In this document: positions 1 through 38,945 of the stretch, piece by piece | How positions within the stretch are numbered: position 1 is the stretch's first letter | How the letters are laid out: the number at the start of each line of letters is the position of its first letter | From: Syntrophobacterales bacterium | GTDB taxonomy: Bacteria > Desulfobacterota > Syntrophobacteria > BM002 | DNA length: 41,655 bases | Assembly (NCBI GenBank): GCA_050123975.1 | Contig: JASFGC010000001.1 | Location: forward strand, 1-41,655 | Direction: 5' to 3' | The notes under the pieces: generated by a model | Seen by the model: the letters and a program-made list of their open reading frames with translations, nothing else | Database searches by the model: none | Told to the model about the DNA's origin: nothing | Position numbers and translations under genes: made by a program

Positions 1-6
1 CCGAAA

Positions 7-675: not shown

Positions 676-832
676 TAGCTGGAGAACAATAAACAGAGCA
701 GGGGATGGGTTTATTTCGGGCCTTATATCTCAGCCAACGCAGGGAGACTTCCTCCGACTAAGAGACATCTTATTTTTTTCTAGGCGCTCTAGGATGCATG
801 GGGGCTATAGTCGCCATTATGAAATATCCGGT

Positions 833-1198
833 TTAAAGCCAGGTGGCAAAGCGGAGAGCCAAACCGTCAGGGCCAGCAATGATGAAGTCTCGCAAGCCAT
901 AATACTGGTCCTCAATCGGGCTTAATATTTTTGCTCCCATCTTATTGGCAAGAGTCCAGTATGCGTCCACATCGGGCACCATGACTCGCATATTGCCGAT
1001 CGGGGTCGCTGGAGGCGGCGGAGTACCCGGCACTGCTGATAAGAATAACCGGGCGTCTTCCCACTTTAGTTCCATAAAGGTTCCCTCATCTCTCACAACC
1101 TCAAATCCGTAGCTTCGGTAAAACTCACTGGACTCTTTTATGTTACGAACGTGAAGAGCAACGACCAGTTGCTCACCCTGATTCACGTAACTCTTCAT
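833..1198 (-). CDS. VOC (glyoxalase/bleomycin-resistance/dioxygenase) family protein
   Basis: Typical VOC pattern: VALHVRNIKESSEFYRSYGFEV ... GLRDFIIAGPDGLALRF. The track start at 1234 is TTG. I prefer the ATG at 1198, which has GAGG about 10 nt upstream. Confidence 0.7.
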   Translation of the reverse strand: MKSYVNQGEQLVVALHVRNIKESSEFYRSYGFEVVRDEGTFMELKWEDARLFLSAVPGTPPPPATPIGNMRVMVPDVDAYWTLANKMGAKILSPIEDQYYGLRDFIIAGPDGLALRFATWL

Positions 1199-1475
1199 AA
1201 AGATAACCTCAGAATGATCTGTACTTCGTTGCAAACTATCTTATTCGTTTACTCGTTGACAAAAAAAATGACGTTGGGTCCGTGCGGAATTGAGGAATTC
1301 AGAAATTCAAGAAATGAAAATCTCCACAAAGTGTAAATCTATTCATATTGGAGCAACCTCCCAGTTGCGATACAATGGCATCAATAGATCCTCATATCGC
1401 AAGCAAAGCTTGCTCCTACGGGAGCTATTATAGTAAGTGCTGTTAATTTCTTCCTTGTGCCATGCGCCTTTCATC

Positions 1476-1524
1476 AATCTGCAATCTGCATTCTGCATTC
1501 TGCATTCTGCATTCTAAAATCTAA
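1476..1524. repeat. tandem heptamer array, 7 units of A(A/T)TCTGC degenerating to AATCTAA
   Basis: Direct reading: aatctgc aatctgc attctgc attctgc attctgc attctaa aatctaa. Confidence 0.9.
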
Positions 1525-1534
1525 TACTCGGTGA

Positions 1535-2137
1535 TCATTTTTTCTTGAGTTTCCTGAGTTCCAGGGCGCAGACTGACGGATCCGGTTTCTTGTTGATATC
1601 CGTCACCTGAATGAATCGTAAGTACCCTTCTTTATCGACAATAAAAAGGGCCCGCTCAGTAACGCCATCGGATCGCAGCACTCCATATGTCTTTGCCACT
1701 TCGCCGTGTGGCCAGAAATCTGACAGCACATGAAACCACACATCTCCAATCTGCTTTGTCCAGGCATGGAGCGTTGGGATGTTGTCCACCGTGATCCCGA
1801 GTAGTACTGCGTCGGTTTCGGAAAAGACATCTTTTACAATATTGTAGCCCGGCCATTGCTTAGAGCATACAGGGGTCCAGGCTGCAGGAACAAATGAGAT
1901 TACAACATTCTTCTCTCCATGGAATTGGTGCAGAGCAATCTTCTCACCGGAAACCGACGGCAGAACAAAATCTGGGGCAAATTCGCCAACTTTTACCTTC
2001 AAAACGCTGTCTATGGGTTTTCGTTTTCCCGGGTCGTAGATACTCTTTTTTAATTCTTCTGACCGCCCCGAAGTGCGACTATTTAGACATACTAGTACCG
2101 CCACCAGAACCACACTGAGCTTCAGCAATCTTCTCAC
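1535..2137 (-). CDS. secreted peroxiredoxin (AhpC/TSA-redoxin family)
   Basis: N-terminal signal peptide (MRRLLKLSVVLVAVLVCLNS). Peroxidatic Cys motif FVPAAWTPVCSKQ. GTG start with AGAGG upstream. Confidence 0.8.
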   Translation of the reverse strand: MRRLLKLSVVLVAVLVCLNSRTSGRSEELKKSIYDPGKRKPIDSVLKVKVGEFAPDFVLPSVSGEKIALHQFHGEKNVVISFVPAAWTPVCSKQWPGYNIVKDVFSETDAVLLGITVDNIPTLHAWTKQIGDVWFHVLSDFWPHGEVAKTYGVLRSDGVTERALFIVDKEGYLRFIQVTDINKKPDPSVCALELRKLKKK

Positions 2138-2274
2138 GGCTATAACCTCTTCAGATCAGATCCAGAATTTGCAGGAGCACTGTAAATTAACTTAGATTAT
2201 AGGAGAGTTCAACTTCTCTAACCCGGACATTTCATGAATCCGAAATTCGTCCCCCCTACCCCATGCTCCATGCT

Positions 2275-2727
2275 CTAATCCTCCGGCTCAAAGTGACAAA
2301 CCGCCGAAGATTCCAGGCATAAAACTTGGCACAGCTCATCAAGCACCTTTTGTTCCGGTTCACTGAAATCGCCGTCTGCTTTGGCAATCAGGATACCGCC
2401 ACGAACGAGCAGTGAGGCTTTCTCCTCATCGCCAGAAAACTTAGCAACAGCTTTCAACACCTCTTTTTTTGCTGTGCCAAAATCCTCTTTGATTGCTTTG
2501 CCCCAGTCTTGGAACAGATTGACCGCCTGGTGTACATCGAATACTTTGAGTTCGTTGACGTTTTCCAAGATGAAATCGAGTGCCAGCCGTTCCGAGAGCA
2601 CGATCTCTTCGTCTGCAAGAGCTAAAAGAGCAGTAGCCGCCATCATAGAATCAAGGAATGGTTTATTGCGATGTCGTTCCAGTTTCTCTGCCATTGATTT
2701 TCTGGCGGCACGAAAGATATTAGCCAT
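2275..2727 (-). CDS. TerB-like (tellurite-resistance TerB fold) protein
   Basis: 150 aa, helical, with acidic EE/DGD motifs (LALADEEIVLSERLAL ... IAKADGDFSEPEQKVLDEL) typical of TerB/DjlA-N domains. Confidence 0.55.
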   Translation of the reverse strand: MANIFRAARKSMAEKLERHRNKPFLDSMMAATALLALADEEIVLSERLALDFILENVNELKVFDVHQAVNLFQDWGKAIKEDFGTAKKEVLKAVAKFSGDEEKASLLVRGGILIAKADGDFSEPEQKVLDELCQVLCLESSAVCHFEPED

Positions 2728-2827
2728 AATCTTCCCCTTGTCTTTTAGCTAGTTCAGAGATCTATTGAGCCCAGCGTCTCCTAAGGAAAGGTATTATAAC
2801 CTACCAGCCCTTTCTCACAACTATTGT

Positions 2828-4708
2828 TTAAGCATCTGTGGCATCATCGAAGTCCATGTGAATCTCTATATCGCCCCCTTCCCTCGATGTTTTCAGGTTG
2901 GGATATCTTTTTTTGAAAACGCGGATCATTGCTGCATTTTCTCGCAGGACGTAGGCGGAAAAAGCTTTGTACTGGTTTTCTCTGGCGATCTTCTCAAGAA
3001 CTCCGAGAAGGTAGGAGGCTATTCCCATGCCCTGATGGTCCTCGCGTACAATGAAGGCCACCTCCGCAGTGGTTTCGTCCACCATCCCATATGAACCTGT
3101 GGCAACCACATCCAAGTTTCCCCTGTTACGCACCAGACCGATCATGGTCATGTTTTTTTTGTAGTCTAGTGTGGCCAAATGCTTCTGCAGATCTTCGTGG
3201 GTAAATATCTTCCTGTTATGAAAAAACCTGTAATAGATGGTCTGCTTGGTGAGAGAATAGAAGAAATTCCTTGAGGCCAGTTCATCCGACGCAAGAAGGG
3301 GGCGAAACTCGATGGTTCGGCCATTCTTCATGAGCATGGTGCTCTTGTAGCCGTCCAGAAAAAGCAGGTCTTCTGGTTGTGGAGGTAATTGGGTGGGGAA
3401 TATGTAGTGGCGCTCCTTTGCCGCCTCCATGAGATCTTCACGAAATTTGGGATGAGCTATCTGGGCCAATTCCACCACTCTCTGATAGATGCTTTTCCCC
3501 TGAAGTTCCGCGATACCGTATTCGGTCACCACGAAATTCACATCACCCCGCGTGGTGGCCACTCCTGCCCCTTCTGACAGGTGGGGCACTATGCGAGATG
3601 TTTTACCTTCTTGCGTTGTAGAGGGCAGCACAATGATGGAAAATCCCCCTTTGGACATGGTACTGCCGCGGAGGAAGTCCACCTGGTCTCCGAGGCCGCT
3701 GTAGAACAAGTATCCCATGGAATCGGAGCACACCTGGCCCGTAAGGTCTACCTCCAAGGCGGAACTAATTGAAACCAGGTTATCGTTTTGGGCGATAACT
3801 GTCGGATCGTTGACAAATTCCGAGGAGCGGAAATAGAACATGGGATTGTCATTCACGAAGTCATAAATTTTCTCTGATCCCATACAAAGGGAGGCCACCA
3901 CGCGCCCGGGAAGAAATGTCTTCCTTTTGTTAGTTATTGCCTTCTTTTCAAAAAGAGGCAGAAAGCCATCGCTGATCAGATGAGTATGTACCCCCAGGTC
4001 CCTCTTTTCGCCCAGATATTTCAAAATGGAGTAAGGCAATTGCCCAAAGCCGAGGTGCAGCGTGGCCCCGTTATCCACGAGCTGGGAAACGTAATGGCCG
4101 ATTCTTCGGGCCACCTCGGTTTCAGTTATCGTAGGGAGAGAAACCACCAGAGGTTCTTCATGCAACACCAGGTAGTCGATTTCATCCACATGAACAAAGC
4201 TGTCTCCTGAGGTCCTGGGCATCATGGGATTGATTTGGGCAATAACCAACTGCGCATTGTCCATTCCTGCTCGGGTGATATCCACAGAGACACCCAGGCT
4301 GCAATTGCCAAATCTGTCTGGCGGACTCACCTGTACGAGAGCCACATCAAGACCGATGCGTCTTCTGTAAAAAAGCCGCGGAACCTGAGAAAGGTAAGCC
4401 GGTATGTAATCAATCTTGCCATCGAAAGCGGCTTCCCGCATGGCGAGACTGATATGGAAAAGCTTTAATGAGAACCTGCTCAGAAAGGAATCGTCATCAA
4501 CATAATCCGCCAGCGTCTGAGAAAGCATCTGATAGACGATCATGTCTTCTAGTTCGGTGTTTTGCACCATAGCCCGGATCAGGTGCTGGGGCTCCCCGCA
4601 TCCTGTACCAAGGAAGACTCTGCTACCAGGTTTAACTTTTGAGATTGCTTGAGTAGCCTCAACTATTTTTTCAGGGCAATAGTCGCTCAACCATTTAGTG
4701 TAGTCCAT
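2828..4708 (-). CDS. acetyl-CoA hydrolase/CoA-transferase family domain fused to a C-terminal GNAT acetyltransferase domain
   Basis: The N-terminal ~430 aa carry the AbfT/Cat-type signatures ALEVDLTGQV and GDQVDF. The C-terminal ~150 aa carry the GNAT core QGMGIASYLLGVLEKIAREN. Confidence 0.8.
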   Translation of the reverse strand: MDYTKWLSDYCPEKIVEATQAISKVKPGSRVFLGTGCGEPQHLIRAMVQNTELEDMIVYQMLSQTLADYVDDDSFLSRFSLKLFHISLAMREAAFDGKIDYIPAYLSQVPRLFYRRRIGLDVALVQVSPPDRFGNCSLGVSVDITRAGMDNAQLVIAQINPMMPRTSGDSFVHVDEIDYLVLHEEPLVVSLPTITETEVARRIGHYVSQLVDNGATLHLGFGQLPYSILKYLGEKRDLGVHTHLISDGFLPLFEKKAITNKRKTFLPGRVVASLCMGSEKIYDFVNDNPMFYFRSSEFVNDPTVIAQNDNLVSISSALEVDLTGQVCSDSMGYLFYSGLGDQVDFLRGSTMSKGGFSIIVLPSTTQEGKTSRIVPHLSEGAGVATTRGDVNFVVTEYGIAELQGKSIYQRVVELAQIAHPKFREDLMEAAKERHYIFPTQLPPQPEDLLFLDGYKSTMLMKNGRTIEFRPLLASDELASRNFFYSLTKQTIYYRFFHNRKIFTHEDLQKHLATLDYKKNMTMIGLVRNRGNLDVVATGSYGMVDETTAEVAFIVREDHQGMGIASYLLGVLEKIARENQYKAFSAYVLRENAAMIRVFKKRYPNLKTSREGGDIEIHMDFDDATDA

Positions 4709-11209: not shown

Positions 11210-12148
<939 letters not shown>

Positions 12149-12413: not shown

Positions 12414-13445
12414 ATGCCCGTTGCTGATTATGAAACCTACTGTAGAATGCTCGATAGAGCATTTGAAAAGAAGTTTGCCTACCCAGCCATAAACGTTACC
12501 TCCCTAACCACGGCTAACGCCGTTTTGAAAGGTCTTGCCGAGAGTCGATGCGACGGCATTATTCAGGTCTCAACCGGTGGTGGTGCATTCGCCTCAGGTT
12601 CCTCGGTTAAGGACATGGCCCTTGGGGCCATTTCAATTGCCGAACACGTGCATCGGGTTGCGGAGCGCTACGACATCTACGTTGCCCTTCATACTGACCA
12701 TTGTCAGGCAGATAAACTTGACACCTTCGTCATTCCCCTCATCGAGGAGACGGAGAAGCGTCGAGCGGCAGGGATGTTAAACCTCTTTAACAGCCACATG
12801 TTCGACGGCAGCGCCCTGCCTTTAAAGGAGAACCTGGACATTGCCGTGCCATTGCTGGAGCGCTGTCGCAAGAATGAAATCATTCTGGAAATCGAGGTTG
12901 GAGTAGTAGGGGGTGAAGAGGATGGTGTCAAAGCCGAGGGACCGGCAGACAAGCTCTATACAACACCGGAAGACATGCTCGAAGCAGCAAAACGCATGAA
13001 TGAAGTCAAGGGTGCACGCTATCTGGTGGCGGCAACCTTTGGTAATGTTCACGGAGTTTACAAGCCGGGTCATGTGAAACTCAAGCCGTCGATTTTAAAG
13101 GATGGCCAGGAGGCTCTGGAGAAGACCTACGGCAAGGAAGGACTTTTTTATCTGGTATTTCACGGGGGATCGGGTTCATCCCTGGACGAGATTCATCAGT
13201 CTCTGGACTATGGTGTGGTGAAGATGAACATAGACACGGACACTCAATATGCCTTTTCCCGCCCCATAGCAGACCACATGCTGAAGAATTACGACGGGGT
13301 GCTCAAAGTGGATGGAGACGTGGGGAACAAGAAAACCTATGATCCCCGTGTCTATTTGAAGATGGCCGAAGAAGCCATGGCAGAGCGGGTAAAAGAGGCC
13401 GTGGATAATCTGAGGGGGAAAGGTACGACTCTGGCTGGTGCCTAA
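12414..13445 (+). CDS. fba: class II fructose-1,6-bisphosphate aldolase
   Basis: FAYPAINV, IIQVSTGG, HTDHC and HGGSG motifs. RBS aaaggaga. Confidence 0.9.
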   Translation: MPVADYETYCRMLDRAFEKKFAYPAINVTSLTTANAVLKGLAESRCDGIIQVSTGGGAFASGSSVKDMALGAISIAEHVHRVAERYDIYVALHTDHCQADKLDTFVIPLIEETEKRRAAGMLNLFNSHMFDGSALPLKENLDIAVPLLERCRKNEIILEIEVGVVGGEEDGVKAEGPADKLYTTPEDMLEAAKRMNEVKGARYLVAATFGNVHGVYKPGHVKLKPSILKDGQEALEKTYGKEGLFYLVFHGGSGSSLDEIHQSLDYGVVKMNIDTDTQYAFSRPIADHMLKNYDGVLKVDGDVGNKKTYDPRVYLKMAEEAMAERVKEAVDNLRGKGTTLAGA

Positions 13446-26948: not shown

Positions 26949-27107
26949 TCCGCGAGGCGGTGGTCAATGGTCCAAAAAAGAATCCTGAGTTCTGATAAGT
27001 AGAAAATCGGTAATGAAGGTTCTTAATCTAATTTTTCATTTATATTCAATAATTTAAGCTGCATACATCTCCTCCGAGGACAGAGTTTCATTTCTTTTCT
27101 TTGATAC

Positions 27108-27124
27108 CGGAATCAGCAGTTCCG
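27108..27124. promoter_or_regulatory. palindromic UAS candidate CGGAAT-CAGCA-GTTCCG
   Basis: Same 17-bp palindrome family as the five copies around 36.8-38.3 kb. Its end is 55 bp upstream of the TGG of the sigma-54 promoter. Confidence 0.6.
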
Positions 27125-27178
27125 ATTTTTTGCACTTCATTTTACAATAAATATAATAATTTCAATATTTTAAATACA

Positions 27179-27194
27179 TGGCATCTCTGTTGCT
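27179..27194 (+). promoter_or_regulatory. sigma-54 (-24/-12) promoter TGGCATctctgTTGCT
   Basis: GG and GC are at canonical spacing. An IHF-like TTCAATATTTTA (27161-27172) ends 6 bp upstream. The USP ATG is ~65 nt downstream. Confidence 0.7.
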
Positions 27195-27259: not shown

Positions 27260-28195
27260 ATGGCTGAATTGAGCAAAATGATAGTCGTAGCCGTGGATGG
27301 TTCCGAAAATGCTCTCAAATCCTTAGATTATTTAGGTCTGCTTTACGGAGCCAAGCCGAGCCTGGAGATCGTTCTCCTTTACGTATTACCTACTTTGCCC
27401 CCGATCCTCGTTGCTGATGATGACCGCCAAAGCAAGTTAAGACTGCTGGCTGTCGAAAAGAAAAGCATCCAGATGGCTGAGCGTATTCTTTCTGAGGCAA
27501 AGAACCTCCTCCGCAAGAAAGGTTTTAAGGATGAACACATTCGGTCATTGCATCGGAAAAAGCAGATGGGCATAGCCCGGGATATATGCAACTTGGCAGA
27601 TGAAAAGAGGGCAGACAGTGTGCTCATCAGTGCGAAAGGTAGAAGCAAACTGGAGGCTTTTTTCTCCGGAGGGGTGGCAAACAGAATGCTAGAGTATTGC
27701 CGTGTCTGTCCAGTGTGGCTAGTGGAGGGTACGGTCAAATCAAAAAAGGTGCTCATCGCCATGGATGGCTCAGCAAACGCTCTCAGAGCAGCAGACCATG
27801 CTGCTTTTATGCTTTCTGGAACCGACTGTCAAGTGGCTCTGTTTCACTCTAAACGACATTTGAGACGTTTTGTACCTCAGGAGATAATTGAGGCAGCGCC
27901 AGAACTGGTAGAACTCTGGAAAAATAAGGCGGGAGAGCAGATCGCGCCGTACATGAAAAAGGCGAATGAAATGCTTCTGGAAGCAGGCATCCCTGAGGCT
28001 CAAATAAAGACCAAGGTGGTTGACGGAAGCAGGGATGCTGCCAGCGATATCCTCAAGGAAGCTAAGAGCAACGACTATGGAACTGTGGTTTTAGGACGAC
28101 GAGGTCACTCAGGTGTAAAGGAATTTTTCATGGGCAGTGTCACCAGTAAGGTTCTCCAAGACTTTGCTGGTAGGGCTGTTTGGCTTGTGCAATAG
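27260..28195 (+). CDS. tandem universal stress protein (two UspA domains)
   Basis: Two copies of the pattern VAVDGSENA ... (G.RG.S....F.GSV...V) ... V.LV. The ATG at 27260 with an AGGAGAAAAGG RBS is preferred over the track start at 27206. Confidence 0.85.
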   Translation: MAELSKMIVVAVDGSENALKSLDYLGLLYGAKPSLEIVLLYVLPTLPPILVADDDRQSKLRLLAVEKKSIQMAERILSEAKNLLRKKGFKDEHIRSLHRKKQMGIARDICNLADEKRADSVLISAKGRSKLEAFFSGGVANRMLEYCRVCPVWLVEGTVKSKKVLIAMDGSANALRAADHAAFMLSGTDCQVALFHSKRHLRRFVPQEIIEAAPELVELWKNKAGEQIAPYMKKANEMLLEAGIPEAQIKTKVVDGSRDAASDILKEAKSNDYGTVVLGRRGHSGVKEFFMGSVTSKVLQDFAGRAVWLVQ

Positions 28196-28900: not shown

Positions 28901-30346
28901 TCAAGGGCGAGACTTAACCGTTATTAAGACCTCAACATCCGGCCATTTTTTGTCTGCTGGTTGTACCTTGGGAGGCGCCACTATTTTCTTGGAGAGATTA
29001 ACATCTTTCTTGATGCTCTCCAGATAAACTGGCTCGGTCATTAAAGTGGTTCTTTGCTCCAAGTCACTTGCCGGGGCCAATATCTTTACTTGTTTCGGTT
29101 CCACAGTTACCGATACCAATTCCAAACCTTCGGGCAGAGTGCCCACCAGTTGTGGCTGTACCTCTACCACAGTCTCCACTATTTCCTCCAACGACACTGC
29201 TACGCTGGAAGGGGTTGCACCCACCAGTTTTACGCTTCTTGGGAGCAACACATTCTTTTCTGACATGACAAGAACCTGTCTCCCTGCCAAAGCCTCGGAC
29301 AAGTCAATCCTGGTACTTAAATTCAGAGGAGTTATATCATCGAGATTTGACTTCGGCCCTGTCAAATGCAGTTTGATTTCAGTCGGCTGGTCACCCGCAA
29401 GTGCAAGGTGCTTGGGGATACCAATGTATTCGATAGGAACGGTGAAAGCTTTTTCCCTTATCTCCATCTGTCCCAGAATAACACTTGACCAGACGACAAG
29501 AGCGACAATGAGACTGAAACCGATTTGAGCAATCAACTCTCGAGTCTTCATTGTTTTGGGCACTTCGATGCCGTGAAAAGCAATAGTTTCCCAGTGAGAG
29601 ATCAATTGTGTGGATAGGTCGCTCCTGTCATGGACTCTCTGGGGTTTTCCGTCGCGAAAGAGAGTAATGACCCCCCTTTCTTCCGAGACTACCACCACCA
29701 AAGCGTCCGATACTTCAGAAAGTCCAATTGCTGCGTGATGCCTGGTGCCGAAATCATTGGACAGCTTGCCCGTTTTCGATAAAGGAAGACGCACGCCGAA
29801 TTGAGTGAGTCTGCCGCCATCAATGATCAGGGCACCATCATGGCCAGGTGAATTGGGATCGAAGATACTCATGATAAGTGGATACGTGGGGGTAGCATTG
29901 AGACCCACACCGCCGGAGAGCCATCTCTCGATCGGTTCTTTACCAGGCACTACGAATATTGCCCCCCTTTTTTTCTCAGCTAAAGAGAAGGCAGTATCAA
30001 CTATGACCATGACCAAGTCTGTATGATCTCTGCCTCGCCCCCGCCCTCTAAAAGACGCTGCACTTTCGAATACCTTTCTGATTTCGGGCTGAAAAAGGAC
30101 AATCAATCCGATCAGCGCAACTTGGCTCAGATTTGAAAAAAGCCAGAGAATTCCTTTGAGGTCTAAAATGTTGGCGGCAACGAAGATAGCAATGGCCAGG
30201 AATATTCCCACCACGATTTTCCAAGCACCCAACCTGTGCAGCGTGCGATACAAGAGAAACAATGCGGCTGCCAACAGGAGAATGTCTAAAAACACCCTCC
30301 AGTCGAGCATGAGCTTGATCATTTTGAAAGTATTCAACTTCGCCAC
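28901..30346 (-). CDS. cdaA: diadenylate cyclase CdaA fused to a CdaR-like YbbR-repeat extracytoplasmic region
   Basis: It has three N-terminal TM helices and a DAC domain (LFQPEIRK, GHDGALIIDG, FGTRHHAAIGLSE, VVVVSEERGVITL). A fourth TM follows, then ~190 aa with YbbR-like beta repeats (IEYIGIP..L, V.V.LEE, V.V.PK.V.I). Confidence 0.85.
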   Translation of the reverse strand: MAKLNTFKMIKLMLDWRVFLDILLLAAALFLLYRTLHRLGAWKIVVGIFLAIAIFVAANILDLKGILWLFSNLSQVALIGLIVLFQPEIRKVFESAASFRGRGRGRDHTDLVMVIVDTAFSLAEKKRGAIFVVPGKEPIERWLSGGVGLNATPTYPLIMSIFDPNSPGHDGALIIDGGRLTQFGVRLPLSKTGKLSNDFGTRHHAAIGLSEVSDALVVVVSEERGVITLFRDGKPQRVHDRSDLSTQLISHWETIAFHGIEVPKTMKTRELIAQIGFSLIVALVVWSSVILGQMEIREKAFTVPIEYIGIPKHLALAGDQPTEIKLHLTGPKSNLDDITPLNLSTRIDLSEALAGRQVLVMSEKNVLLPRSVKLVGATPSSVAVSLEEIVETVVEVQPQLVGTLPEGLELVSVTVEPKQVKILAPASDLEQRTTLMTEPVYLESIKKDVNLSKKIVAPPKVQPADKKWPDVEVLITVKSRP

Positions 30347-30355
30347 CTCTATTGG

Positions 30356-31654
30356 TTACTTTACCAGCAAGGGCATAAAGATTACAGCAAAACCCAAGAA
30401 CGAGGCGAATCCGACACAGTCAGTCACGGTGGTGAGAAAAATTGATGAGGACTGTGCCGGGTCGCGGTTGAGGGCTTTCAATATGAGAGGGATGGTTGCT
30501 CCTGAAAGACCGGCCGCCACCATATTGACGATCATGGACAAAAAAATCACCAATGCAAGACCATAGTTTTTGCTCCAAACCCAGACAGCTCCAGCGGTAC
30601 CCACCGCAACTGCTATGCCATTAAACAGGCCTGCGAGAACTTCTTTCACGATAACCCGCTTGGCAGCGCCAGAAATGATTTCGTGAAGAGCCAAGCCGCG
30701 CATAACCACGGCCAGGGCTTGGGCTCCCGTGTTTCCTCCCTGACCGGAGACAATTGGGAGAAGCACAGCCAGGGCGGTTACCTTTTGGATGGTACCCTCA
30801 AACGCACCCACCACCGCTGCTGCCAGGAAAGCGGTCAATAAGTTTACGTATAGCCAGGGTAAGCGACGTTTTACCACAGTCGAAACCGGTGAAAGAGCGC
30901 GCTCGTCACCTCCAGCACCAACCATTTTCTGGAGATCCTCAAATGCTTCCAATTGACCGGCGCGCAGTGCTTCATCGTGTTTGATCACGCCCACAAGCCG
31001 ACCATCACTATCAACAACCGGTAGGGCAAGAAAGCGGTGCCTGCGTATAAGGGTGATAACCTCTTCCCGGGTCATGGTCTCGGGTACGCTGAGAATTTCC
31101 CGGTGAATCAGGGACTCTATTTTATCCTGTGGGGGTGCGAGCATGAGTTCGCGCATATTGAGGACGCCAGCCAATTTCCCATCGCTGTCAGTCACATACA
31201 AATAAAACAAGCTCTGACGTGGGGCTTTGCGTAAGTAAGCAGCCGCAGCTTTGACGGTCAGGTCCATTGGTATGGCAGCTACTCGCGGTTCCATCATTCC
31301 GCCTGCAGTATCCGGCGAATAATGCATGAGGTCACGGAGTTGCCTCGCTACACGATCTGAAAGCTTTGACAGAGCGTCTTCCCTACTGCTCTGTTCAAGA
31401 TGCTGAAGTATCATGGACGCTGTTCTCGGCGGCATGTTCTCCAGCAATTCCCTGACACGAGATGGATCTAGATTTTCTAGGATAGCGGCAGCAATATGAG
31501 GTCGGAGACGCTCCAGCAAAAGTCCGATGGCTCTGAATGGTAGCTTTTTTACGATCCCGACAGCTTCACTGATATCCAGCTGTTCTAAAGCATGTGCTGC
31601 ATCTTTGGGGTGGCTTTCCACAAATTGTCGAACAAGCAATTGAGCCGTTTCCAT
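30356..31654 (-). CDS. mgtE: magnesium transporter MgtE
   Basis: MgtE N-domain, CBS pair, and a C-terminal TM domain with SGQGGNTGAQ and DPA..SSIFLTTVTD motifs. It ends 9 bp before the cdaA start. Confidence 0.92.
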   Translation of the reverse strand: METAQLLVRQFVESHPKDAAHALEQLDISEAVGIVKKLPFRAIGLLLERLRPHIAAAILENLDPSRVRELLENMPPRTASMILQHLEQSSREDALSKLSDRVARQLRDLMHYSPDTAGGMMEPRVAAIPMDLTVKAAAAYLRKAPRQSLFYLYVTDSDGKLAGVLNMRELMLAPPQDKIESLIHREILSVPETMTREEVITLIRRHRFLALPVVDSDGRLVGVIKHDEALRAGQLEAFEDLQKMVGAGGDERALSPVSTVVKRRLPWLYVNLLTAFLAAAVVGAFEGTIQKVTALAVLLPIVSGQGGNTGAQALAVVMRGLALHEIISGAAKRVIVKEVLAGLFNGIAVAVGTAGAVWVWSKNYGLALVIFLSMIVNMVAAGLSGATIPLILKALNRDPAQSSSIFLTTVTDCVGFASFLGFAVIFMPLLVK

Positions 31655-31764
31655 TCAAGCTGTCCTTTCACCGAAAAAATGTTTCTGCCAATATGCCATC
31701 ACCGAAGCATTCTTTTCAGCGTGGGTCGTCGCAGGGTATGCCGTGCGCATTGATCTTTGCTTTT

Positions 31765-32814
31765 TCAATCTTCTGTCTTTTTAGGCGCAGATCGTTTGTG
31801 CTTACGCTTGCGCGCCAACTTTTGTAGGTCCACTACTTTGTCAGTCTCGTCCACGATTTCGGCACCCAGCACAGTCTCCAACAGATCTTCCAAAGTGATG
31901 AGGCCCGCCACCCCACCATACTCATCCTCTACGATGGACATATGGCTGCGTTTTTTTAAGAAGCGGTTCAACAATGCCAGACAATTTGTCTCTTCCCGTA
32001 CGAAAGAAATAGGCTTGACAATGGAAGACAGGAGCATATCGGGCTCGCTCATTATTCCGGCACAGCCGAGGTCATGGATCATGACATAGCCCAGTACGTT
32101 GTCTTTGTCCTCGCCATGGACAGGGATGCGAGTAAAACCCTTACCACTTGCAGCTTGAAGTGCTTCCCCGATTGTCATTTCAGCATTCAGGCTAAACATC
32201 ACTTTTCGAGGGGTCATGACCTCACGAACCTCTGTATTTTCCAGCTTTATGATATTGTGGACCATGAGGCTTTCCCACTCAGTGATTTCACCTTCTTTGG
32301 CTCCCAAACGAATGGACCCCAAGATGTCTTCCTCAGTGATTCGGGCAGGCGGACGGCCACGGGTGAGAAAAGCAGAGAACTTCTCGGTGATCCAAATTAA
32401 GGGGTAGAGAGGATACTTCATTGCAGTCAGAGGCCAGACAATCACAGGCCAGAGATTACGCCAATAAACAGCACCCATGGTTTTGGGAATGATCTCGGCA
32501 AAGAAGAGGATAGCGAGAGTGAATATAATAGAAAAAATAGGAACCAAGCCCACTCCTAATGTTTTGTGGGCATACATCCCCGCGATGGTAGCTCCCGCAG
32601 TGTTGGCGATGGTGTTCAGAATGAGTATCGCCGCAATGGGCTCGGAGATCTGTTTTTTCAACTGAATCATCTTTAAAGCCATCTGTCTTGTCTTCGATTT
32701 GGATTTTGCAGCTTCCAATGTCCCCAGGCGGGTGGAATACAACGTGGCTTCATACAGTGAGCATTGTGCTGAAATAAAGATGGTTAGAAACACAACAAAA
32801 AACAGGATAGACAT
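31765..32814 (-). CDS. CNNM/CorC-type transporter (DUF21 membrane domain + CBS pair, no CorC_HlyC C-domain)
   Basis: DUF21 helices (ILILNTIANTAGA, FAEIIPK), then a CBS pair (V.EVMTPR ... IVEDEYGGVAGLITLEDLLE). Confidence 0.85.
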   Translation of the reverse strand: MSILFFVVFLTIFISAQCSLYEATLYSTRLGTLEAAKSKSKTRQMALKMIQLKKQISEPIAAILILNTIANTAGATIAGMYAHKTLGVGLVPIFSIIFTLAILFFAEIIPKTMGAVYWRNLWPVIVWPLTAMKYPLYPLIWITEKFSAFLTRGRPPARITEEDILGSIRLGAKEGEITEWESLMVHNIIKLENTEVREVMTPRKVMFSLNAEMTIGEALQAASGKGFTRIPVHGEDKDNVLGYVMIHDLGCAGIMSEPDMLLSSIVKPISFVREETNCLALLNRFLKKRSHMSIVEDEYGGVAGLITLEDLLETVLGAEIVDETDKVVDLQKLARKRKHKRSAPKKTED

Positions 32815-32842
32815 TGATGTCTCCTTTTCTACTTCTGCTTCT

Positions 32843-33823
32843 TTATTTGAACTGTTTGATTACAAAACGGCCCAAGCTGGCTGGGTCATCTTTTTCAAGG
32901 TGCTTCGCTAAATTGGCCAAAGGAATTTCAGCACGGGCCCTGGCCCGATGCCCGCCTGCTGTACCCAAGCGGCCAAAGGCCCTGGCTGCCCTGGTGCCGG
33001 CGTTTTTGCGGAAACCATGATTGCGGATAATCACCACCAGCGTTTTCTTGTACACACCAGAGACTATAACCCAATCGATCTCATGTAATCTCAGGAAGAA
33101 GTCCGCGACAAGTACGAGATTATCCGGCGACTGGACCTGACCGAGGTGACTGAAGATTTTCCCCTCGATAATCTTTTTGTTTGCGAGGGCCAGTTGGAAA
33201 TATTCTAGGTCCTCTGCCCCCATGTCGGCTGCTTCGATCTTTCGCAGCAGATTCATATCAGCGTGAGAGAAAAGATATCGAAAGGCCTTTATGTCCTCTT
33301 CTGCCACACCTGACTCAAAATTACCGGTGTCCACCCGGATGGCAAAAAGAAGGGCAGTAGCCAGGCTTTTGGAGGGGCGTATCCTGGCTGCCCGCAGATA
33401 CTCTGTCATCATAGTGGCTGTAGCCCCGTAATCTGGCCGTATGTCCAGAAACGGAGCCCCGAGTGAAGTTGTTCGGGGATGGTGGTCAATAACCACGTCA
33501 TAGTCAAAATCGGCGTAAGCTTCGTTGTGGTCGGGCTGGCCGTCCACCAAGACAGTCTTTGAAAAGCTGGAACCGTCCACCCGGTGCAAGCGCTCGAGGG
33601 GGATCTTGAGAAGCCTGATCATTGTCACGTTGTCGTATCGATTGATTTCGTTGAAATGAGCGATGGTCACTGACTGAACTTTGCGCCAGAGGAGACGCTT
33701 GAGGGCCAAGGCCGATGCCAGGGCGTCAGGGTCGGCCCAAATGGTTATGAGAACATTGTCCTTAGAGTTAAACTGGCTGAGAAGCTCTCGCAGACGACCC
33801 TGCCTTGATCTTGTTGGAGACAT
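32843..33823 (-). CDS. DHH/DHHA1 family phosphoesterase (NrnA-like)
   Basis: Motifs ADPDALASA, VLVDGQP, VVIDHHP, DTGNF, and the DHHA1 motif GTAGGH. Confidence 0.8.
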   Translation of the reverse strand: MSPTRSRQGRLRELLSQFNSKDNVLITIWADPDALASALALKRLLWRKVQSVTIAHFNEINRYDNVTMIRLLKIPLERLHRVDGSSFSKTVLVDGQPDHNEAYADFDYDVVIDHHPRTTSLGAPFLDIRPDYGATATMMTEYLRAARIRPSKSLATALLFAIRVDTGNFESGVAEEDIKAFRYLFSHADMNLLRKIEAADMGAEDLEYFQLALANKKIIEGKIFSHLGQVQSPDNLVLVADFFLRLHEIDWVIVSGVYKKTLVVIIRNHGFRKNAGTRAARAFGRLGTAGGHRARARAEIPLANLAKHLEKDDPASLGRFVIKQFK

Positions 33824-34191: not shown

Positions 34192-34647
34192 TTAGGCGGC
34201 CTTGACCTCGATCTTCTTGACGGCCTCAGGGGCAGTCTTGGGCATACTGATGCTGAGTACCCCGTCCTTGTAGTTGGCCTTGATTTTGTCTGTTTTCACT
34301 TCCACAGGCAATTGCACTGTCCTCGAAAAGGAGCCGGAGCCGCGCTCAACCAGGTGGAAGTTTTCTTTTTTCTCCTCGCGCTCGTGTTTGCGCTCGCCCT
34401 TGATGGTCAGCACCTTTCCGCTCAAGGAGATGTCAATCTCTTTTGGATCCATTCCCGGCAGTTCAGCCCTGACCACTAGCTCCTTGTCAGTCTCGGACAC
34501 ATCCACCGAAGGCATCCACCTTCCGGTCTCTGAGACACCGCGAAACGGCCACGCTTCCGAGAACATGTCGAAAAGCCGATCCATCTCGCGACGCATCTGG
34601 GTGAGGCCCCAGTCCTCTCCTTTTCTCCAACGGATCAAATCTGTCAT
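34192..34647 (-). CDS. Hsp20/alpha-crystallin small heat-shock protein
   Basis: The alpha-crystallin domain includes PSVDVSETDKELVVRAELPG, GVLSISMPK and a C-terminal I-x-V. Confidence 0.92.
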   Translation of the reverse strand: MTDLIRWRKGEDWGLTQMRREMDRLFDMFSEAWPFRGVSETGRWMPSVDVSETDKELVVRAELPGMDPKEIDISLSGKVLTIKGERKHEREEKKENFHLVERGSGSFSRTVQLPVEVKTDKIKANYKDGVLSISMPKTAPEAVKKIEVKAA

Positions 34648-34740: not shown

Positions 34741-36393
<1,653 letters not shown>

Positions 36394-36684
36394 TTATTTT
36401 TGAATCACTGCCAGAATGTCATCCTCACGCATGAGTAAATGTTCGTCACCATCGATTTTGACTTCAGTGCCGGCATACTTGCCAAACAGTACTTTGTCAC
36501 CTTTCTTGACATCCGGGGGGATAACATCGCCATTGTTCAAGATTTTACCCTTGCCAACGGCAATGACTTTGCCCTGGATGGACTTTTCCCTGGCAGTGTC
36601 AGGGATGATGATTCCCCCCGTGCTTTTGTCCTCTTCCTCTAATCGTTTGATCAGGACTCGATCGTGCAAAGGTCTAACCTTCAT
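36394..36684 (-). CDS. groES: co-chaperonin GroES
   Basis: [14 protein letters not shown] ... The ATG at 36684 has AGGAGG 8 nt upstream. The track start at 36693 is GTG. Confidence 0.95.
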
Positions 36685-36737
36685 GGTTTGCACCTCCTGT
36701 ACAATAATGCTTCATATCAACATCACATTCGTCATTG

Positions 36738-36753
36738 AGCATTCCCCATGCCA
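36738..36753 (-). promoter_or_regulatory. sigma-54 (-24/-12) promoter TGGCATggggaATGCT upstream of groES
   Basis: Read on the minus strand. GG and GC are at canonical spacing. An IHF-like TTCAGTTAATTA (36760-36771) ends 6 bp upstream. The groES ATG is ~55 nt downstream. Confidence 0.65.
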
Positions 36754-36806
36754 AAGTGATAATTAACTGAAATTACAGGGTAAAATGAGAAAAATACGAT
36801 TGACAC

Positions 36807-36823
36807 CGGAACTCTGAGTTCCT
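36807..36823. promoter_or_regulatory. palindromic UAS candidate CGGAAC-TCTGA-GTTCCT (proximal to the groES promoter)
   Basis: 54 bp from the -24 TGG, the same geometry as at the other two promoters. Confidence 0.6.
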
Positions 36824-36910
36824 ATAATTGGGTGGGAAGATAGGTGGCTCAGTTTAGTCAGAACCGAGGATTGTTTCTAATGTATTGAAATCGGTTGAAA
36901 AACCAGATAG

Positions 36911-36927
36911 TGGAATTCTAAGTTCCT
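36911..36927. promoter_or_regulatory. palindromic UAS candidate TGGAAT-TCTAA-GTTCCT
   Basis: Same palindrome family, in the groES / activator divergent spacer. Confidence 0.5.
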
Positions 36928-36940
36928 CTATTCCTTTTTT

Positions 36941-36957
36941 CGGAACTAGAGGTTCCG
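36941..36957. promoter_or_regulatory. palindromic UAS candidate CGGAAC-TAGAG-GTTCCG
   Basis: Perfect 6+5+6 palindrome, 13 bp from the previous copy. Confidence 0.55.
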
Positions 36958-37075
36958 CATTACAAGAGATAGCGAAGAACCGCTGGGAGGAAGAAAGGGA
37001 AAAGAAGATTGATTTAAAATCATTTTTAGATTATTCACGCTCTAATCTATTGAATTTTGGGTGAGGGAGAAGCTG

Positions 37076-38116
37076 ATGAGCTCCGAGCTTGACTCTTTAA
37101 AAGACCAATTTTGGCAACCGAGTTCCTTGGCAGTAATTCAAACCAAAAACTCCACCATGCAAACGGTCTTCGCCAAAATCCGCTCTGTGGCGCCGACCAA
37201 GAGTACCGTTTTACTAACAGGTGAGACCGGAACAGGCAAAGGTGTGCTTGCGAATCTCATTCATCAACACAGCAATCGCAGGGATGCCAAGTTTGTCAGC
37301 GTTCACTGCGGCGCGATCCCAGACACACTCTTGGAAAGCGAACTGTTCGGGCATGAGAAGGGGGCCTTCACAGGTGCCGACAGAAGAAAGCTGGGAAAAT
37401 TCGAAATCTCCAAAGGGGGAACGATTTTTCTGGATGAGATCGGTACCATTACACCGGCTGCACAGATAAAGCTCTTGCAGGTACTGCAGGATGGGACTTT
37501 TCAGCGAGTAGGTGGTGAAGCGACCTTCAATGCCGATGTGCGAGTAATAGCGGCCAGTAATATGGATCTCGAAGAAATGTGTGACAATGGCCACTTTAGA
37601 AAGGACCTCTATTTCCGCTTGAACGTCTTTCCCGTGGAAATTCCACCCCTAAGGGAGAGAAAAGAAGACATCCCTCATATTGTGGAAGTTATTATAGGCA
37701 GGCTCAATAAATTTCACCTCAAAGAAATTCGCGACATCCACCCGGATGTAATGGAAGGATTTCTCAATTACTCCTGGCCGGGAAACATACGAGAACTGGA
37801 AAATCTCATGGAACGAGCGTACATTCTTGAAAGCTCATCTACATTGACGCCGGAAAGTTTTCCCTTGGAACTGCTTACCTTAGAGGCTCCATCGGCGCAG
37901 ATGGGGTTGGATTCTTCATTTACCTTGGCTGAGGTCAGACGAAGAGCCTTGGAGGAAGTTGAGAAGCGCTACCTGAAGGAGCTCCTTGCAGGCCAAAAAG
38001 GGAAAATACGAGAGTCGGCAGAGGTCGCCGGCATTACCACCCGCCAATTGCACAAGTTGCTCACAAAATACGGGATTAAGAAGGAGGACTTCAAGTCCCG
38101 TACCAGCCATCAATAG
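37076..38116 (+). CDS. sigma-54-dependent transcriptional activator (bEBP) lacking an N-terminal sensory/receiver domain (PspF-like architecture)
   Basis: Walker A LLTGETGTGKG lies ~50 aa from the start. The hallmark GAFTGA loop is present (EKGAFTGADRRK), as is Walker B TIFLDEIG. The C-terminal Fis-type HTH is SAEVAGITTRQLHKLLTKYGI. ATG at 37076 (the track's GTG is at 37061). Confidence 0.9.
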   Translation: MSSELDSLKDQFWQPSSLAVIQTKNSTMQTVFAKIRSVAPTKSTVLLTGETGTGKGVLANLIHQHSNRRDAKFVSVHCGAIPDTLLESELFGHEKGAFTGADRRKLGKFEISKGGTIFLDEIGTITPAAQIKLLQVLQDGTFQRVGGEATFNADVRVIAASNMDLEEMCDNGHFRKDLYFRLNVFPVEIPPLRERKEDIPHIVEVIIGRLNKFHLKEIRDIHPDVMEGFLNYSWPGNIRELENLMERAYILESSSTLTPESFPLELLTLEAPSAQMGLDSSFTLAEVRRRALEEVEKRYLKELLAGQKGKIRESAEVAGITTRQLHKLLTKYGIKKEDFKSRTSHQ

Positions 38117-38123
38117 AGCAAAA

Positions 38124-38140
38124 CGGAACCATGAGTTCCG
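38124..38140. promoter_or_regulatory. palindromic UAS candidate CGGAAC-CATGA-GTTCCG
   Basis: Perfect palindrome arms, 8 nt after the activator stop codon. Confidence 0.55.
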
Positions 38141-38256
38141 ACATTCAGAGAATCGGTCCTTCAAGTTCTTCCTCTAAAGTTATCCATAGAAATCAAGATT
38201 TTAAAAGCTCCATTTGAACTGTGCCCGCACTTTACCACTTTCTCTCCCCCCCATAG

Positions 38257-38273
38257 CGGAACCTACAGTTCCG
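38257..38273. promoter_or_regulatory. palindromic UAS candidate CGGAAC-CTACA-GTTCCG
   Basis: Perfect arms. Its end is 55 bp upstream of the TGG of the next sigma-54 promoter. Confidence 0.6.
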
Positions 38274-38327
38274 ATTGCTCTTCCCCCGCATCACATTAAA
38301 TATAGTTAATTCAATATGTTATTGAGA

Positions 38328-38343
38328 TGGTACAACTCTTGCG
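38328..38343 (+). promoter_or_regulatory. sigma-54 (-24/-12) promoter TGGTACaactcTTGCG
   Basis: GG and GC are at canonical spacing. An IHF-like TTCAATATGTTA (38310-38321) ends 6 bp upstream. Confidence 0.65.
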
Positions 38344-38494: not shown

Positions 38495-38761
38495 ATGATA
38501 AGCGGGGAAAAAGCCCCTGTGGAGGATTCTATCACCATTAGAGGACTGCTTGTTCCCATCGATTGGGATGAGAAAGGCAACATCACCGAGATTGCTGTTT
38601 CCACTTATTTCGAAGAGGAGTATCTCATCGAAAAGAATGTCAGGGGAGAAGAGATGTTGCCCTTCCTTCGCCAAAAGGTGAAGGTCATCGGATTCGTGAA
38701 AATGGATGAGGGTGGGAAGAAGGTTGTCAGGGTGGAAGAGTATCAAGTAATTGAAGACTGA
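38495..38761 (+). CDS. small acidic hypothetical protein (88 aa), first gene of the sigma-54-driven unit
   Basis: ATG with AAGGAG 9 nt upstream. The predicted protein is beta-rich (ITIRGLLVPIDWDEKGNITEIAV ... KVKVIGFVK ... VVRVEEYQVIED). No family recognised. Confidence 0.6.
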   Translation: MISGEKAPVEDSITIRGLLVPIDWDEKGNITEIAVSTYFEEEYLIEKNVRGEEMLPFLRQKVKVIGFVKMDEGGKKVVRVEEYQVIED

Positions 38762-38810: not shown

Positions 38811-38945
38811 ATGTTTTCACGGTTTTGTGGGGAAATTCTAACGGTGCTTCTATTGGCGACTATATTGATTTTAAGGATCGTATTCTTCTTATGTAATGAG
38901 ATCGAAGCGGTCGAAATAGATTTGAGTGATATCGAGCAATGGTAA
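38811..38945 (+). CDS. possible 44-aa single-TM peptide
   Basis: ATG preceded by GGAGG. Hydrophobic core ILTVLLLATILILRIVFFL. It is short and unsupported by homology. Confidence 0.25.
   Translation: MFSRFCGEILTVLLLATILILRIVFFLCNEIEAVEIDLSDIEQW

Follow-up and report, generated by a model that had tools for sequence, protein, structure and literature searches.

A 17-bp palindrome as the probable enhancer of an NtrC1-like sigma-54 activator of chaperonin and stress genes, and the apparent in-frame loss of its receiver domain in a Syntrophobacterales lineage

Bacterial heat-shock genes are usually described as being governed by sigma-32 or by repressors such as HrcA. The heat-shock section of Rodionov 2004 deals with sigma-32 and CIRCE only. 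The stretch of 41,655 bases from a Syntrophobacterales bacterium considered here (contig JASFGC010000001.1, positions 1 to 41,655; hereafter called the window) contains a groES-groEL-hsp20 cluster, a divergent gene encoding a sigma-54 activator of 346 amino acids (aa), and six copies of a 17-bp palindrome. Comparison with related loci and with metagenomes provides good support for the palindrome being the upstream activating sequence of one NtrC1-like subfamily of sigma-54 activators, and it is very probable that the activator adjoining the chaperonin genes turns on heat-shock and stress genes by way of this palindrome. The joint reading, to which a rough probability of 0.7 is attached, is that the palindrome is the subfamily enhancer, that the receiver of the window protein was lost by deletion, and that the truncated protein is likely active without a signal, its level setting the output of the regulon. 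An earlier interpretation made from the letters of the window (the sequence-only reading) had assumed a hidden partner of the activator. This idea is replaced by a simpler and better-documented story, namely one in-frame loss of an atypical receiver, after which the truncated form appears to have been kept under selection.

Among the systems described so far, the closest in architecture is NtrC1 of Aquifex aeolicus, receiver-less fragments of which are constitutively active. The isolated AAA+ domain of NtrC1 forms ring assemblies, more precisely heptamers (PMC10696123). The orthologues of the window activator share with NtrC1 (1NY5, 4L4U) and with DctD of Sinorhizobium the order of receiver, presumed helical linker, AAA+ domain and helix-turn-helix, and the window activator itself corresponds to the engineered receiver-less fragment 1NY6. 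Compared with NtrC1 and DctD, however, the receiver has been deleted naturally here and the targets are chaperone, Usp and osmolyte genes. Moreover, the conserved Lys, an acidic residue of the pocket and the GHG motif are missing from the receiver of the orthologues, in which five residues are inserted after beta3. None of the NCBIfam equivalog models (NifA, AtoC, NtrC, ZraR, PspF and others) reached its cut-off for the window activator, which therefore belongs to an unnamed subfamily. A second system to be compared is Escherichia coli PspF, a sigma-54 activator that has no regulatory domain of its own and on which PspA acts in trans as an inhibitor. The likeness lies in a protein consisting of AAA+ domain and helix-turn-helix only, in a stress-related regulon, in an IHF-assisted sigma-54 promoter, and in enhancers located in a divergent intergenic region, allowing auto-control.

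The nearest functional precedent found comes from D. vulgaris, where DVU3305, a response regulator working with sigma-54 in a general stress response, acts on its own operon and on UspA-type neighbours (Rajeev et al. 2011, PMC3333781; Kazakov et al. 2015, PMC4641369). Induction of its targets by heat shock, stationary phase and high pH has been reported (PMC3333781; PMC4641369). It is likened to the window activator by its published description, and it differs in its GAFSGA motif, its link to a Lon-protease response regulator and its other gene set, groESL not being among the reported targets. Natural loss of a receiver that all orthologues keep is known from DVUA0024 of D. vulgaris, a sigma-54 activator cut from its receiver by a single-nucleotide frameshift deletion and annotated as a pseudogene (PMC4641369). 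DVUA0024 has also lost eight N-terminal AAA+ residues, whereas the deletion in the window is in frame and leaves the original start codon, and the gene shows the marks of purifying selection. Lastly, for Bacteroidota and Planctomycetota, groES/groEL as well as Usp and small heat-shock genes have been predicted to stand behind sigma-54-type promoters (PMC12316311). That study concerns other phyla and names no activator, enhancer motif or fixed promoter architecture, whereas a candidate activator, its palindrome and an IHF site are brought forward here by comparison. Full-text literature searches for a sigma-54-dependent groESL/Usp regulon or for the palindrome motif retrieved nothing specific. 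Both the cis-architecture (enhancer, IHF site, -24/-12 element) and the protein family are classical. What gives the locus its weight is that groESL, hsp20, Usp, S-adenosylmethionine (AdoMet) decarboxylase and lysine 2,3-aminomutase genes stand behind sigma-54 promoters with one dedicated activator and an unusually rigid layout, in a system that is widespread in sediment metagenomes.

In the window, the core GGAAY-N5-GTTCC was found at 27109, 36808, 36912, 36942, 38125 and 38258. These six matches compare with 0.22 expected, a count reached in none of 100 dinucleotide-preserving shuffles, and no seventh match occurs in the 41,655 bases. Similarly, the 12-base core CGGAAC/GTTCCG, with at most one mismatch, was found at five sites, against 0.07 in the shuffles. 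The fuller 17-bp consensus is ATCGGAAC-N5-GTTCCGAT. Across the compared loci, the half-sites do not change and the 5-nt spacer varies freely, without compensatory changes in the stem, which is the signature of a protein-binding site and the opposite of that of an RNA hairpin. The promoter pattern TGGYAY-N5-WTGC occurs five times in the window (0.67 expected), three of the matches adjoining palindromes (27179, plus strand; 36753, minus strand; 38328, plus strand). In these -24/-12 elements, of the TGGCAC-N5-TTGC type, GG and GC stand 10 nt apart; the elements lie upstream of genes and are kept in orthologous loci. Each of the three modules also contains an IHF-like site with one mismatch to WATCAR-N4-TTR, the consensus quoted in PMC7962754. 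The sequence-only reading had reported 17-bp palindromes at 27108, 36807, 36911, 36941, 38124 and 38257 only, three of them in a rigid module of palindrome, 35-36 bp, IHF-like site, 6 bp and -24/-12 element. All these coordinates were confirmed and the spacing was exact on re-measurement, the palindrome being followed by 36, 35 and 36 bp, TTCA(A/G)T..TTA, 6 bp and TGG. Five of the copies had been seen as bracketing the activator gene; their positions stand, but the copies at 36807 and 38257 are the promoter-proximal sites, and those at 36911, 36941 and 38124 the distal sites, of the flanking sigma-54 promoters. The elements of the three modules, in the order of their coordinates, are the following.

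26979 to 27023, plus strand: degenerate palindrome-like pair, AGAAT-N5-GTTCT at 26979 and GGTAA-N5-GTTCT at 27009, at -200 and -170 from the TGG of the Usp promoter
27108 to 27124, no strand: proximal enhancer palindrome CGGAATCAGCAGTTCCG of the tandem-Usp promoter, 70 nt upstream of TGG
27160 to 27172, plus strand: IHF-like site TTTCAATATTTTA, one mismatch to WATCAR-N4-TTR, ending 6 nt before TGG
27179 to 27193, plus strand: putative sigma-54 -24/-12 promoter TGGCATCTCTGTTGC of the tandem Usp gene, by pattern match
36739 to 36753, minus strand: putative sigma-54 -24/-12 promoter TGGCATGGGGAATGC of groES-groEL-hsp20, conserved in the orthologous loci L001, L002 and L003
36760 to 36772, minus strand: IHF-like site ATTTCAGTTAATTA, 6 nt upstream of the groES -24 element
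36807 to 36823, no strand: proximal enhancer palindrome of the groES promoter, 69 nt from the minus-strand TGG
36911 to 36927, no strand: distal enhancer site TGGAATTCTAAGTTCCT, 173 nt from the groES TGG, conserved in L001-L003
36941 to 36957, no strand: distal enhancer palindrome CGGAACTAGAGGTTCCG, 203 nt from the groES TGG
38124 to 38140, no strand: distal enhancer palindrome of the downstream promoter, 203 nt from TGG and 8 nt past the activator stop codon, at the same position in L001-L003, L084, L085 and L087
38257 to 38273, no strand: proximal enhancer palindrome of the downstream promoter, 70 nt from TGG
38309 to 38321, plus strand: IHF-like site AATTCAATATGTTA of the downstream promoter, by sequence match
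38328 to 38342, plus strand: putative sigma-54 -24/-12 promoter TGGTACAACTCTTGC of the operon starting with an 88-aa gene, by pattern match

The same module was retrieved around the orthologues of the activator. In close relatives, the synteny of groEL-groES, divergent activator, 88-aa gene, 44-aa open reading frame (ORF) and Usp gene is kept. Ahead of 30 sigma-54 promoters in nine orthologous loci, a palindrome (at most two mismatches) begins 67-70 nt upstream of TGG; in most of these modules another copy lies at 201-205 nt, and a third is frequent at 170-174 nt. Co-conservation of motif and gene in orthologous loci, which had been put forward as a check, was thus encountered throughout these nine loci. 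A metagenome scan for modules with exact palindromes, seven spacing values being allowed, returned at least 120 stretches, and 85 modules were read from 80 listed loci. The distance between palindrome and TGG was 70 nt in 35 of these modules, 69 nt in 24, 68 nt in 11, 67 nt in seven, 71 nt in six, and 72 and 66 nt in one each (chi-square of about 81 with 6 degrees of freedom, by the authors' arithmetic). Distal copies, which were outside the search pattern, peak at 170-174 and 201-205 nt (about 172 and 202). In addition, WATCAR-N4-TTR begins at -19 in 45 of 84 metagenome modules and at -18 in five, and only twice elsewhere in the 53-nt interval. The positions of the degenerate pair at 26979 and 27009 fit the two distal peaks, and these sites, with three to four core mismatches, are possibly weak distal enhancer sites, an assignment made with low confidence.

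Furthermore, the motif follows the orthologues of the activator. A protein scan of genome contigs supplied a background set of two orthologues (L004 and L005) and 78 paralogue loci. In the paralogue loci (40-50% identity, about 1.2 Mb), which lack the module layout, the strict palindrome occurs six times, which is about chance level, and each of the close orthologous loci L001-L003 has five to six strict palindromes in about 10 kb. Orthologues of at least 62% identity carry the recognition helix (T/S/G)(T/V)RQLHKL(L/M), with 1.7-6.7 near-palindromes per 10 kb at their loci, the exception being the 67% orthologue of L004 with the helix SRHLHDL. Paralogues have the usual SRRTL.RKL helix and 0-1.5 near-palindromes per 10 kb, except for a single site in the outlier L048 (3 kb). 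This orthologue-linked motif and the fixed geometry lend support by comparison to the proposal of the sequence-only reading that the protein recognises the palindrome and drives at least three stress promoters.

The activator gene itself is located between the two groups of enhancer sites.

37076 to 38116, plus strand: sigma-54 activator of 346 aa with AAA+ core, lid and putative C-terminal helix-turn-helix; receiver deleted in frame, with the junction between 37084 and 37085

Its product matches PF00158 (Sigma54_activat; 2.9e-67) over residues 28-192 as well as AAA_lid_14, and no N-terminal domain was found. The Walker A (GETGTGKG), GAFTGA and Walker B (FLDEIG) motifs are intact in the translation, in line with the earlier description of a bacterial enhancer-binding protein with only some 20 residues ahead of its AAA+ core. 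PF02954, the Fis-type helix-turn-helix, is not reported for the window activator, but many orthologues have it as a precomputed match; the last 60 residues can be aligned with the helix-turn-helix of paralogues, and three helices are present there in the AlphaFold2 model of a full-length orthologue. The 346-aa form recurs at 96-97% identity in a protein search. Homologues that are 86-91% identical are 471 aa long and possess an N-terminal receiver (PF00072), and down to about 72% identity all are about 470 aa long with PF00072. The receiver is carried by 102 of the 120 homologues listed. Thus, the window protein does lack an N-terminal domain, as the sequence-only reading had stated in calling it sensor-less, but this condition is derived by deletion and is not shared by most of its homologues. 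In tblastn searches of window positions 36301-38300 with two receiver-bearing proteins, only their residues 125-471 matched; the receiver sequence gave no match in that region even at E = 10, and no remnant was present anywhere in the window.

Alignment of the DNA of two receiver-less loci (the window and L003) with that of two receiver-bearing ones (L001 and L002) located the deletion. The leader, the ribosome-binding site and ATGAG(N)TCC are common to all four loci. From there, L001 and L002 run about 375 nt further to TCC/TCG GAG, whereas the window and L003 pass directly from TCC to GAG. The gene lengths, 1416 versus 1041 nt, correspond to 125 codons missing in frame, with a short TCC repeat at each edge. 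The receiver-less state is, on this alignment, a derived one, produced by a recent 375-bp in-frame deletion, and not an ancestral design. The deletion spans the whole receiver and the first part of the helix linking receiver and ATPase, so that the window activator begins with MSS-ELDSLKDQFW and only the last nine residues of the linker helix are left. The start codon, the ribosome-binding site and all enhancer sites are kept. The window and L003 also lack some 47-52 nt of 5' leader that are present in L001 and L002 (junction 37054/37055; columns 436-482 of alignment A1); judged from the same sequences, this is a second deletion, confined to the receiver-less lineage. Other short homologues (313-395 aa) were set aside as receiver-less cases. 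P0011 and P0017 start inside the receiver or linker on short contigs; for P0011 (352 aa), taken up as a second receiver-less allele, a run of N in the scaffold at L088 4934-4943 splits the gene into calls of 111 and 352 aa, with the receiver upstream, so that its receiver-less form is an artefact. None of them was used as evidence.

Several lines of evidence indicate that the truncated gene is maintained. An identical activator protein is encoded on 14 contigs, and the 90% cluster has 69 members, of which the 15 listed are 346-347 aa long except for two partial sequences (63 and 319 aa). The deletion is, by this distribution over many samples, fixed in a lineage. Between two receiver-less genes, the ratio of nonsynonymous to synonymous substitution rates (dN/dS) is 0.17 at a dS of 0.10, and between receiver-less and receiver-bearing orthologues it amounts to 0.09-0.11, values at which the truncated gene is under purifying selection and free of decay, as far as substitutions reveal it. 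Between the two receiver-less genomes, none of 60 half-site positions and five of 25 spacer positions have changed (Fisher p = 0.0016), and none of 78 half-site and -24/-12 core positions versus 65 of 692 other intergenic positions (p = 0.001). This suggests that the enhancer circuit remains in use after the loss of the receiver. The receiver-less lineage thereby constitutes a natural experiment, in which the same truncation that biochemists use to obtain constitutive NtrC1 is kept under selection. A pair of proteins that are 91% identical poses the question whether the receiver of this subfamily is a brake or a clutch, and the lineage raises that of what a stress regulon gains by the loss of its sensor. 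For annotation, the lesson is that close orthologues are to be compared before a partner acting in trans is deduced from the lack of a sensor domain.

How the truncated activator behaves may be judged from its relatives. The best PDB matches are 4L4U and 1NY5, both A. aeolicus NtrC1 (E values of 1.8e-77 and 1.4e-76), and the alignment to NtrC1 is gapless across helix alpha5 and the linker. A long structured linker is a mark of negative control, as in NtrC1 and DctD, in which the unphosphorylated receiver holds the ATPase as an inactive dimer (PMC10696123). In NtrC and FleR, the receiver exerts positive control and is needed for assembly (PMC10696123). Since the closest solved relative is NtrC1, whose receiver inhibits, the truncated activator is most likely constitutively active. 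A deletion between two TCC repeats removed the receiver and the start of the linker helix in this Syntrophobacterales lineage; in the mechanism proposed, freed from the receiver brake, the 346-aa activator would assemble and activate without a signal; and its amount would then set the output of the regulon. The latter could be subject to auto-control, as suggested by the geometry of one further element.

36800 to 36828, plus strand: putative sigma-70-type promoter TTGACA-N17-TATAAT directed toward the activator gene, a 12/12 match, the spacer of which is almost wholly the proximal palindrome

An activator bound to the palindrome at 36807 would activate groES and repress its own gene. This promoter is identical in L001, L003 and L088 and is present in four of five close loci.

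The receiver itself was surveyed over residues 1-127 of the orthologues P0003-P0119. In the 102 receiver-bearing orthologues it departs from the canonical set of acidic pair, acceptor Asp, Thr/Ser and Lys. The acceptor Asp is retained in 100 of them, Tyr (88), Cys (9) or Phe (2) stands in place of the Lys, 86 have Gln or Lys at the second, metal-binding acidic position, and the Thr position is occupied by Ser in 68 and by Ala in 23; the five-residue insertion after beta3 belongs to the same set. The linker S-E-L-D-Y-L-R-D-x-F-W is almost invariant in the subfamily. In the AlphaFold2 model of a full-length orthologue, the receiver reaches a predicted local distance difference test (pLDDT) score of about 83. 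The degeneracy of the receiver suggests signalling outside the standard phosphorylation switch.

A number of points weigh against the joint reading. First, the helix of the same model is continuous over residues 110-136 with a pLDDT below 50 from residue 128, which leaves the helical linker supported, not settled. Secondly, the GHG motif after beta4 is an indicator of negative control (PMC10696123), and the consensus at that position in the 102 orthologues is S-P-Q; the atypical ancestral receiver may follow neither the inhibitory nor the assembly precedent. Thirdly, the promoter TTGACA-N17-TATAAT is not present in L002 or in the group of 73% identity. Furthermore, the constraint test involves two receiver-less genomes only, the metagenome scan is blind to motif degeneracy, and the chance expectation for strict modules, a few matches at most, comes from the authors' rough arithmetic and not from a tool. 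Lastly, each functional step of the activator model is inferred from comparison of sequences.

A broader explanation is that the whole subfamily senses stress without phosphorylation, the receiver and linker being a direct thermosensor or a chaperone-titrated switch, comparable to sigma-32/DnaK and HrcA/GroEL. This is regarded as a rather unlikely, tentative extension. If it is true, phosphorylation-independent sensing would represent a third, sigma-54-based type of heat-shock control, of which the receiver-less lineage would be an always-on or re-wired derivative. Experiments would be most rewarding on the natural truncation and on the degeneracy of the receiver.

It is quite unlikely that the window protein is a genuine sensor-less activator of the PspF or HrpRS type, gated in trans by the 88-aa product or by the chaperones it induces. 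Such a view would account for the absence of any N-terminal domain, for the 88-aa gene always coming first after the activator in each orthologous locus, and for the chaperones in the regulon; also, the conserved Lys being absent from the ancestral receiver, the original signal may not have been phosphorylation and could have come from a protein partner. In contrast to PspF, however, the sensor-less architecture stems from a recent deletion and is not the design of the family, and the NCBIfam PspF models remain far below their cut-offs (TIGR02974 at 253.9 bits versus 443.55, NF008622 at 222.3 versus 529). No pspA-like gene was present among the window ORFs scanned. The neighbouring small protein argues in the same direction. 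It is without Pfam or NCBIfam match, and all 78 database homologues are unnamed. The AlphaFold2 model (pLDDT 86.8) displays a five-stranded barrel with one short helix, and the best PDB matches, although weak (E of about 2e-3, TM scores of 0.5-0.6), are oligonucleotide/oligosaccharide-binding folds (OB-folds), namely Stn1/Ten1, SSB, PriB and the LysRS anticodon domain. Hence, an OB-fold beta-barrel is predicted and not a PspA-like coiled coil. Paralogues with signal peptides exist, and the gene directly follows the activator in every orthologous locus, including the one of 64% identity; as it stands equally beside receiver-bearing orthologues, it did not arise as a replacement of the sensor. 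Neither the gating by a partner as in PspF and HrpR/S, which the sequence-only reading considered necessary, nor the 88-aa product as a PspA-style partner is therefore retained. No sign of gating of the activator by the 88-aa protein was seen, although the two may interact; on titration by the chaperones, the comparisons speak neither for nor against.

The opposite reading, that the truncated protein is inactive because the receiver is needed for ring assembly, as in NtrC and FleR, and persists as a placeholder, a repressor or an incipient pseudogene while other promoters are used, is judged equally improbable. It is favoured by the known positive receiver control in those two proteins (PMC10696123), by the missing negative-control GHG motif in the receiver of the subfamily, and by the D. 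vulgaris precedent DVUA0024, which was judged a pseudogene (PMC4641369). In addition, at least one relative genome contains a second groES-groEL locus, so that the sigma-54-driven copy need not be essential. What tells against it is the selection within the receiver-less lineage (dN/dS of 0.17), the intact Walker A, GAFTGA and Walker B motifs, the full conservation of half-sites and -24/-12 cores amid diverged spacers and flanks, the fixation of the allele in 69 sequences from many samples, and the precisely in-frame deletion with its start codon kept, unlike the frameshift in DVUA0024.

That the palindromes belong elsewhere, be it to another regulator such as a heat-shock repressor, to RNA hairpins, to terminators or to a dispersed repeat, is highly improbable: although the copy at 38124 follows closely on the activator stop codon and both it and the copy at 38257 were flagged as terminator-like stems in the consensus scan, the terminator reading was rejected because the coding strand has no T-run, neither after 38124 nor at the other stem, and because the sites are locked at -70, -172 and -203 to sigma-54 promoters, which are not operator positions, while invariant half-sites with a free spacer and no compensatory stem changes, the absence of an Rfam family match, and a motif that tracks the distinctive helix-turn-helix of the orthologues and is near chance in paralogue loci weigh against the others.

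No RNA family or tRNA was found in the whole window (Rfam at gathering threshold, ARAGORN), the long leaders being without known RNA element. A 59-aa ORF in the activator leader (36885-37064) overlaps both conserved distal sites and was treated as a non-gene; at the equivalent position no gene is called in L001 and L003, and L002 has a 91-aa ORF upstream of the activator, without Pfam match. Two further promoter-like matches to TGGCAY-N5-WTGC, at 11925-11939 and 30606-30620 (both minus strand), were excluded from the regulon, no palindrome being present within 400 nt. The second of these lies at the 3' end of an mgtE-like gene, just upstream of a cdaA-like gene. Both are either chance matches or targets of another activator.

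Judged from their positions, the three window promoters would drive the groES-groEL-hsp20 cluster, a tandem-Usp operon, and an operon of 88-aa, 44-aa, Usp and kinase genes, as listed below.

27260 to 28195, plus strand: tandem Usp gene (Pfam Usp, two stretches), 34% identical to the sigma-54-driven tandem Usp of L002
28227 to 28868, plus strand: 213-aa gene directly downstream of the tandem Usp gene, without Pfam or NCBIfam match
34192 to 34647, minus strand: hsp20, small heat-shock protein, downstream of groEL (Pfam HSP20, 4.9e-25)
34741 to 36360, minus strand: groEL (Pfam Cpn60_TCP1)
36394 to 36684, minus strand: groES (Pfam Cpn10, 1e-37)
38495 to 38761, plus strand: 88-aa protein with predicted OB-fold
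38811 to 38945, plus strand: 44-aa hydrophobic ORF, also called in L002 and L003
38995 to 39471, plus strand: single-domain Usp (Pfam Usp), with orthologues in L001, L002, L003 and L088
39587 to 40945, plus strand: 452-aa cytoplasmic histidine-kinase-like protein (HATPase_c), on the operon strand

The likely start of the tandem Usp gene is the ATG at 27260, preceded by AGGAGA (mechanical ORF start at 27206), and that of groES the ATG at 36684, preceded by GGAGGT (mechanical ORF start at 36693). The 213-aa gene probably shares an operon with the tandem Usp gene. No membrane segment is evident in the 452-aa kinase-like protein, which also gives no match to Pfam HisKA and has ADIEHNVIVP as its only H-box-like stretch. 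Its orthologues near the activator are 83% (L002), 72% (L087) and 71% (L085) identical, tracking the divergence of the activator; the gene lies on the same strand downstream of the module in the window and in L087, and it is intact in the receiver-less genome. A role as former partner of the receiver is plausible.

The targets behind the metagenome modules extend this gene set. Among the 67 first ORFs scanned against Pfam, GroES was found seven times, HSP20 four times, AdoMet decarboxylase four times, a lysine 2,3-aminomutase-type radical SAM protein three times, a sigma-70-family factor twice and DUF418 twice, besides Rho_N. The commonest first gene behind the module belongs to the 88-aa family (about 15 cases, with secreted relatives in addition). 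Longer orthologous loci add DUF2914, a fusion of hibernation factor and cold-shock domain, and an operon with an HtrA-like protease that ends in the 452-aa kinase. These genes outline a regulon for heat and general stress, of which the earlier designation as hub of a stress regulon is a fair description, given groES, HSP20, Usp and related targets. Modules in L085 (1451-2988), L087 (1195-2723), L086 (11576-15826), L117, L121 and L138 stand before genes of a solute or polyamine type; one such operon comprises lysine 2,3-aminomutase, ATP-grasp enzymes and a GNAT acetyltransferase, and other modules precede AdoMet decarboxylase. As the aminomutase operon and AdoMet decarboxylase suggest synthesis of compatible solutes or polyamines, the regulon may possibly respond to osmotic stress besides heat.

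Some minor observations concern the genes around these modules. The 88-aa protein belongs to a family of small, putatively OB-fold proteins with the motif GxxxPxDWDxxGN...EEEY, which has cytoplasmic and signal-peptide members; relatives occur at L084 9701-9958 and 10041-10367 and at L086 10250-10531 and 11138-11482, and two metagenome first ORFs match DUF5818 weakly. In L109 (3586-4824), a 413-aa sigma-70-family factor with regions 1.2, 2, 3 and 4 is located some 266 nt downstream of one module, which hints at a cascade from sigma-54 to a second sigma factor. The remainder of the window is devoted to central metabolism and ion transport (Pta, Ack, AOR, Mdh, Fba, Pyk, MgtE, CNNM and CdaA). Between both stress operons, the minus-strand region 28901-33823 encodes a diadenylate cyclase with YbbR domains (CdaA-type), MgtE, a CNNM/CBS protein and a DHH-family protein, and looks like a cyclic di-AMP and magnesium neighbourhood. 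Finally, in L001 (CP070692.1, a complete metagenome-assembled genome), the sigma-54-driven groES is followed by phage-like genes (Prim-Pol, large terminase) and not by groEL, and a second groES with a 74-aa Cpn60 fragment lies 7 kb away (coordinates 1-4472 and 12596-13137). The chaperonin operon of that genome was apparently interrupted by a mobile element.

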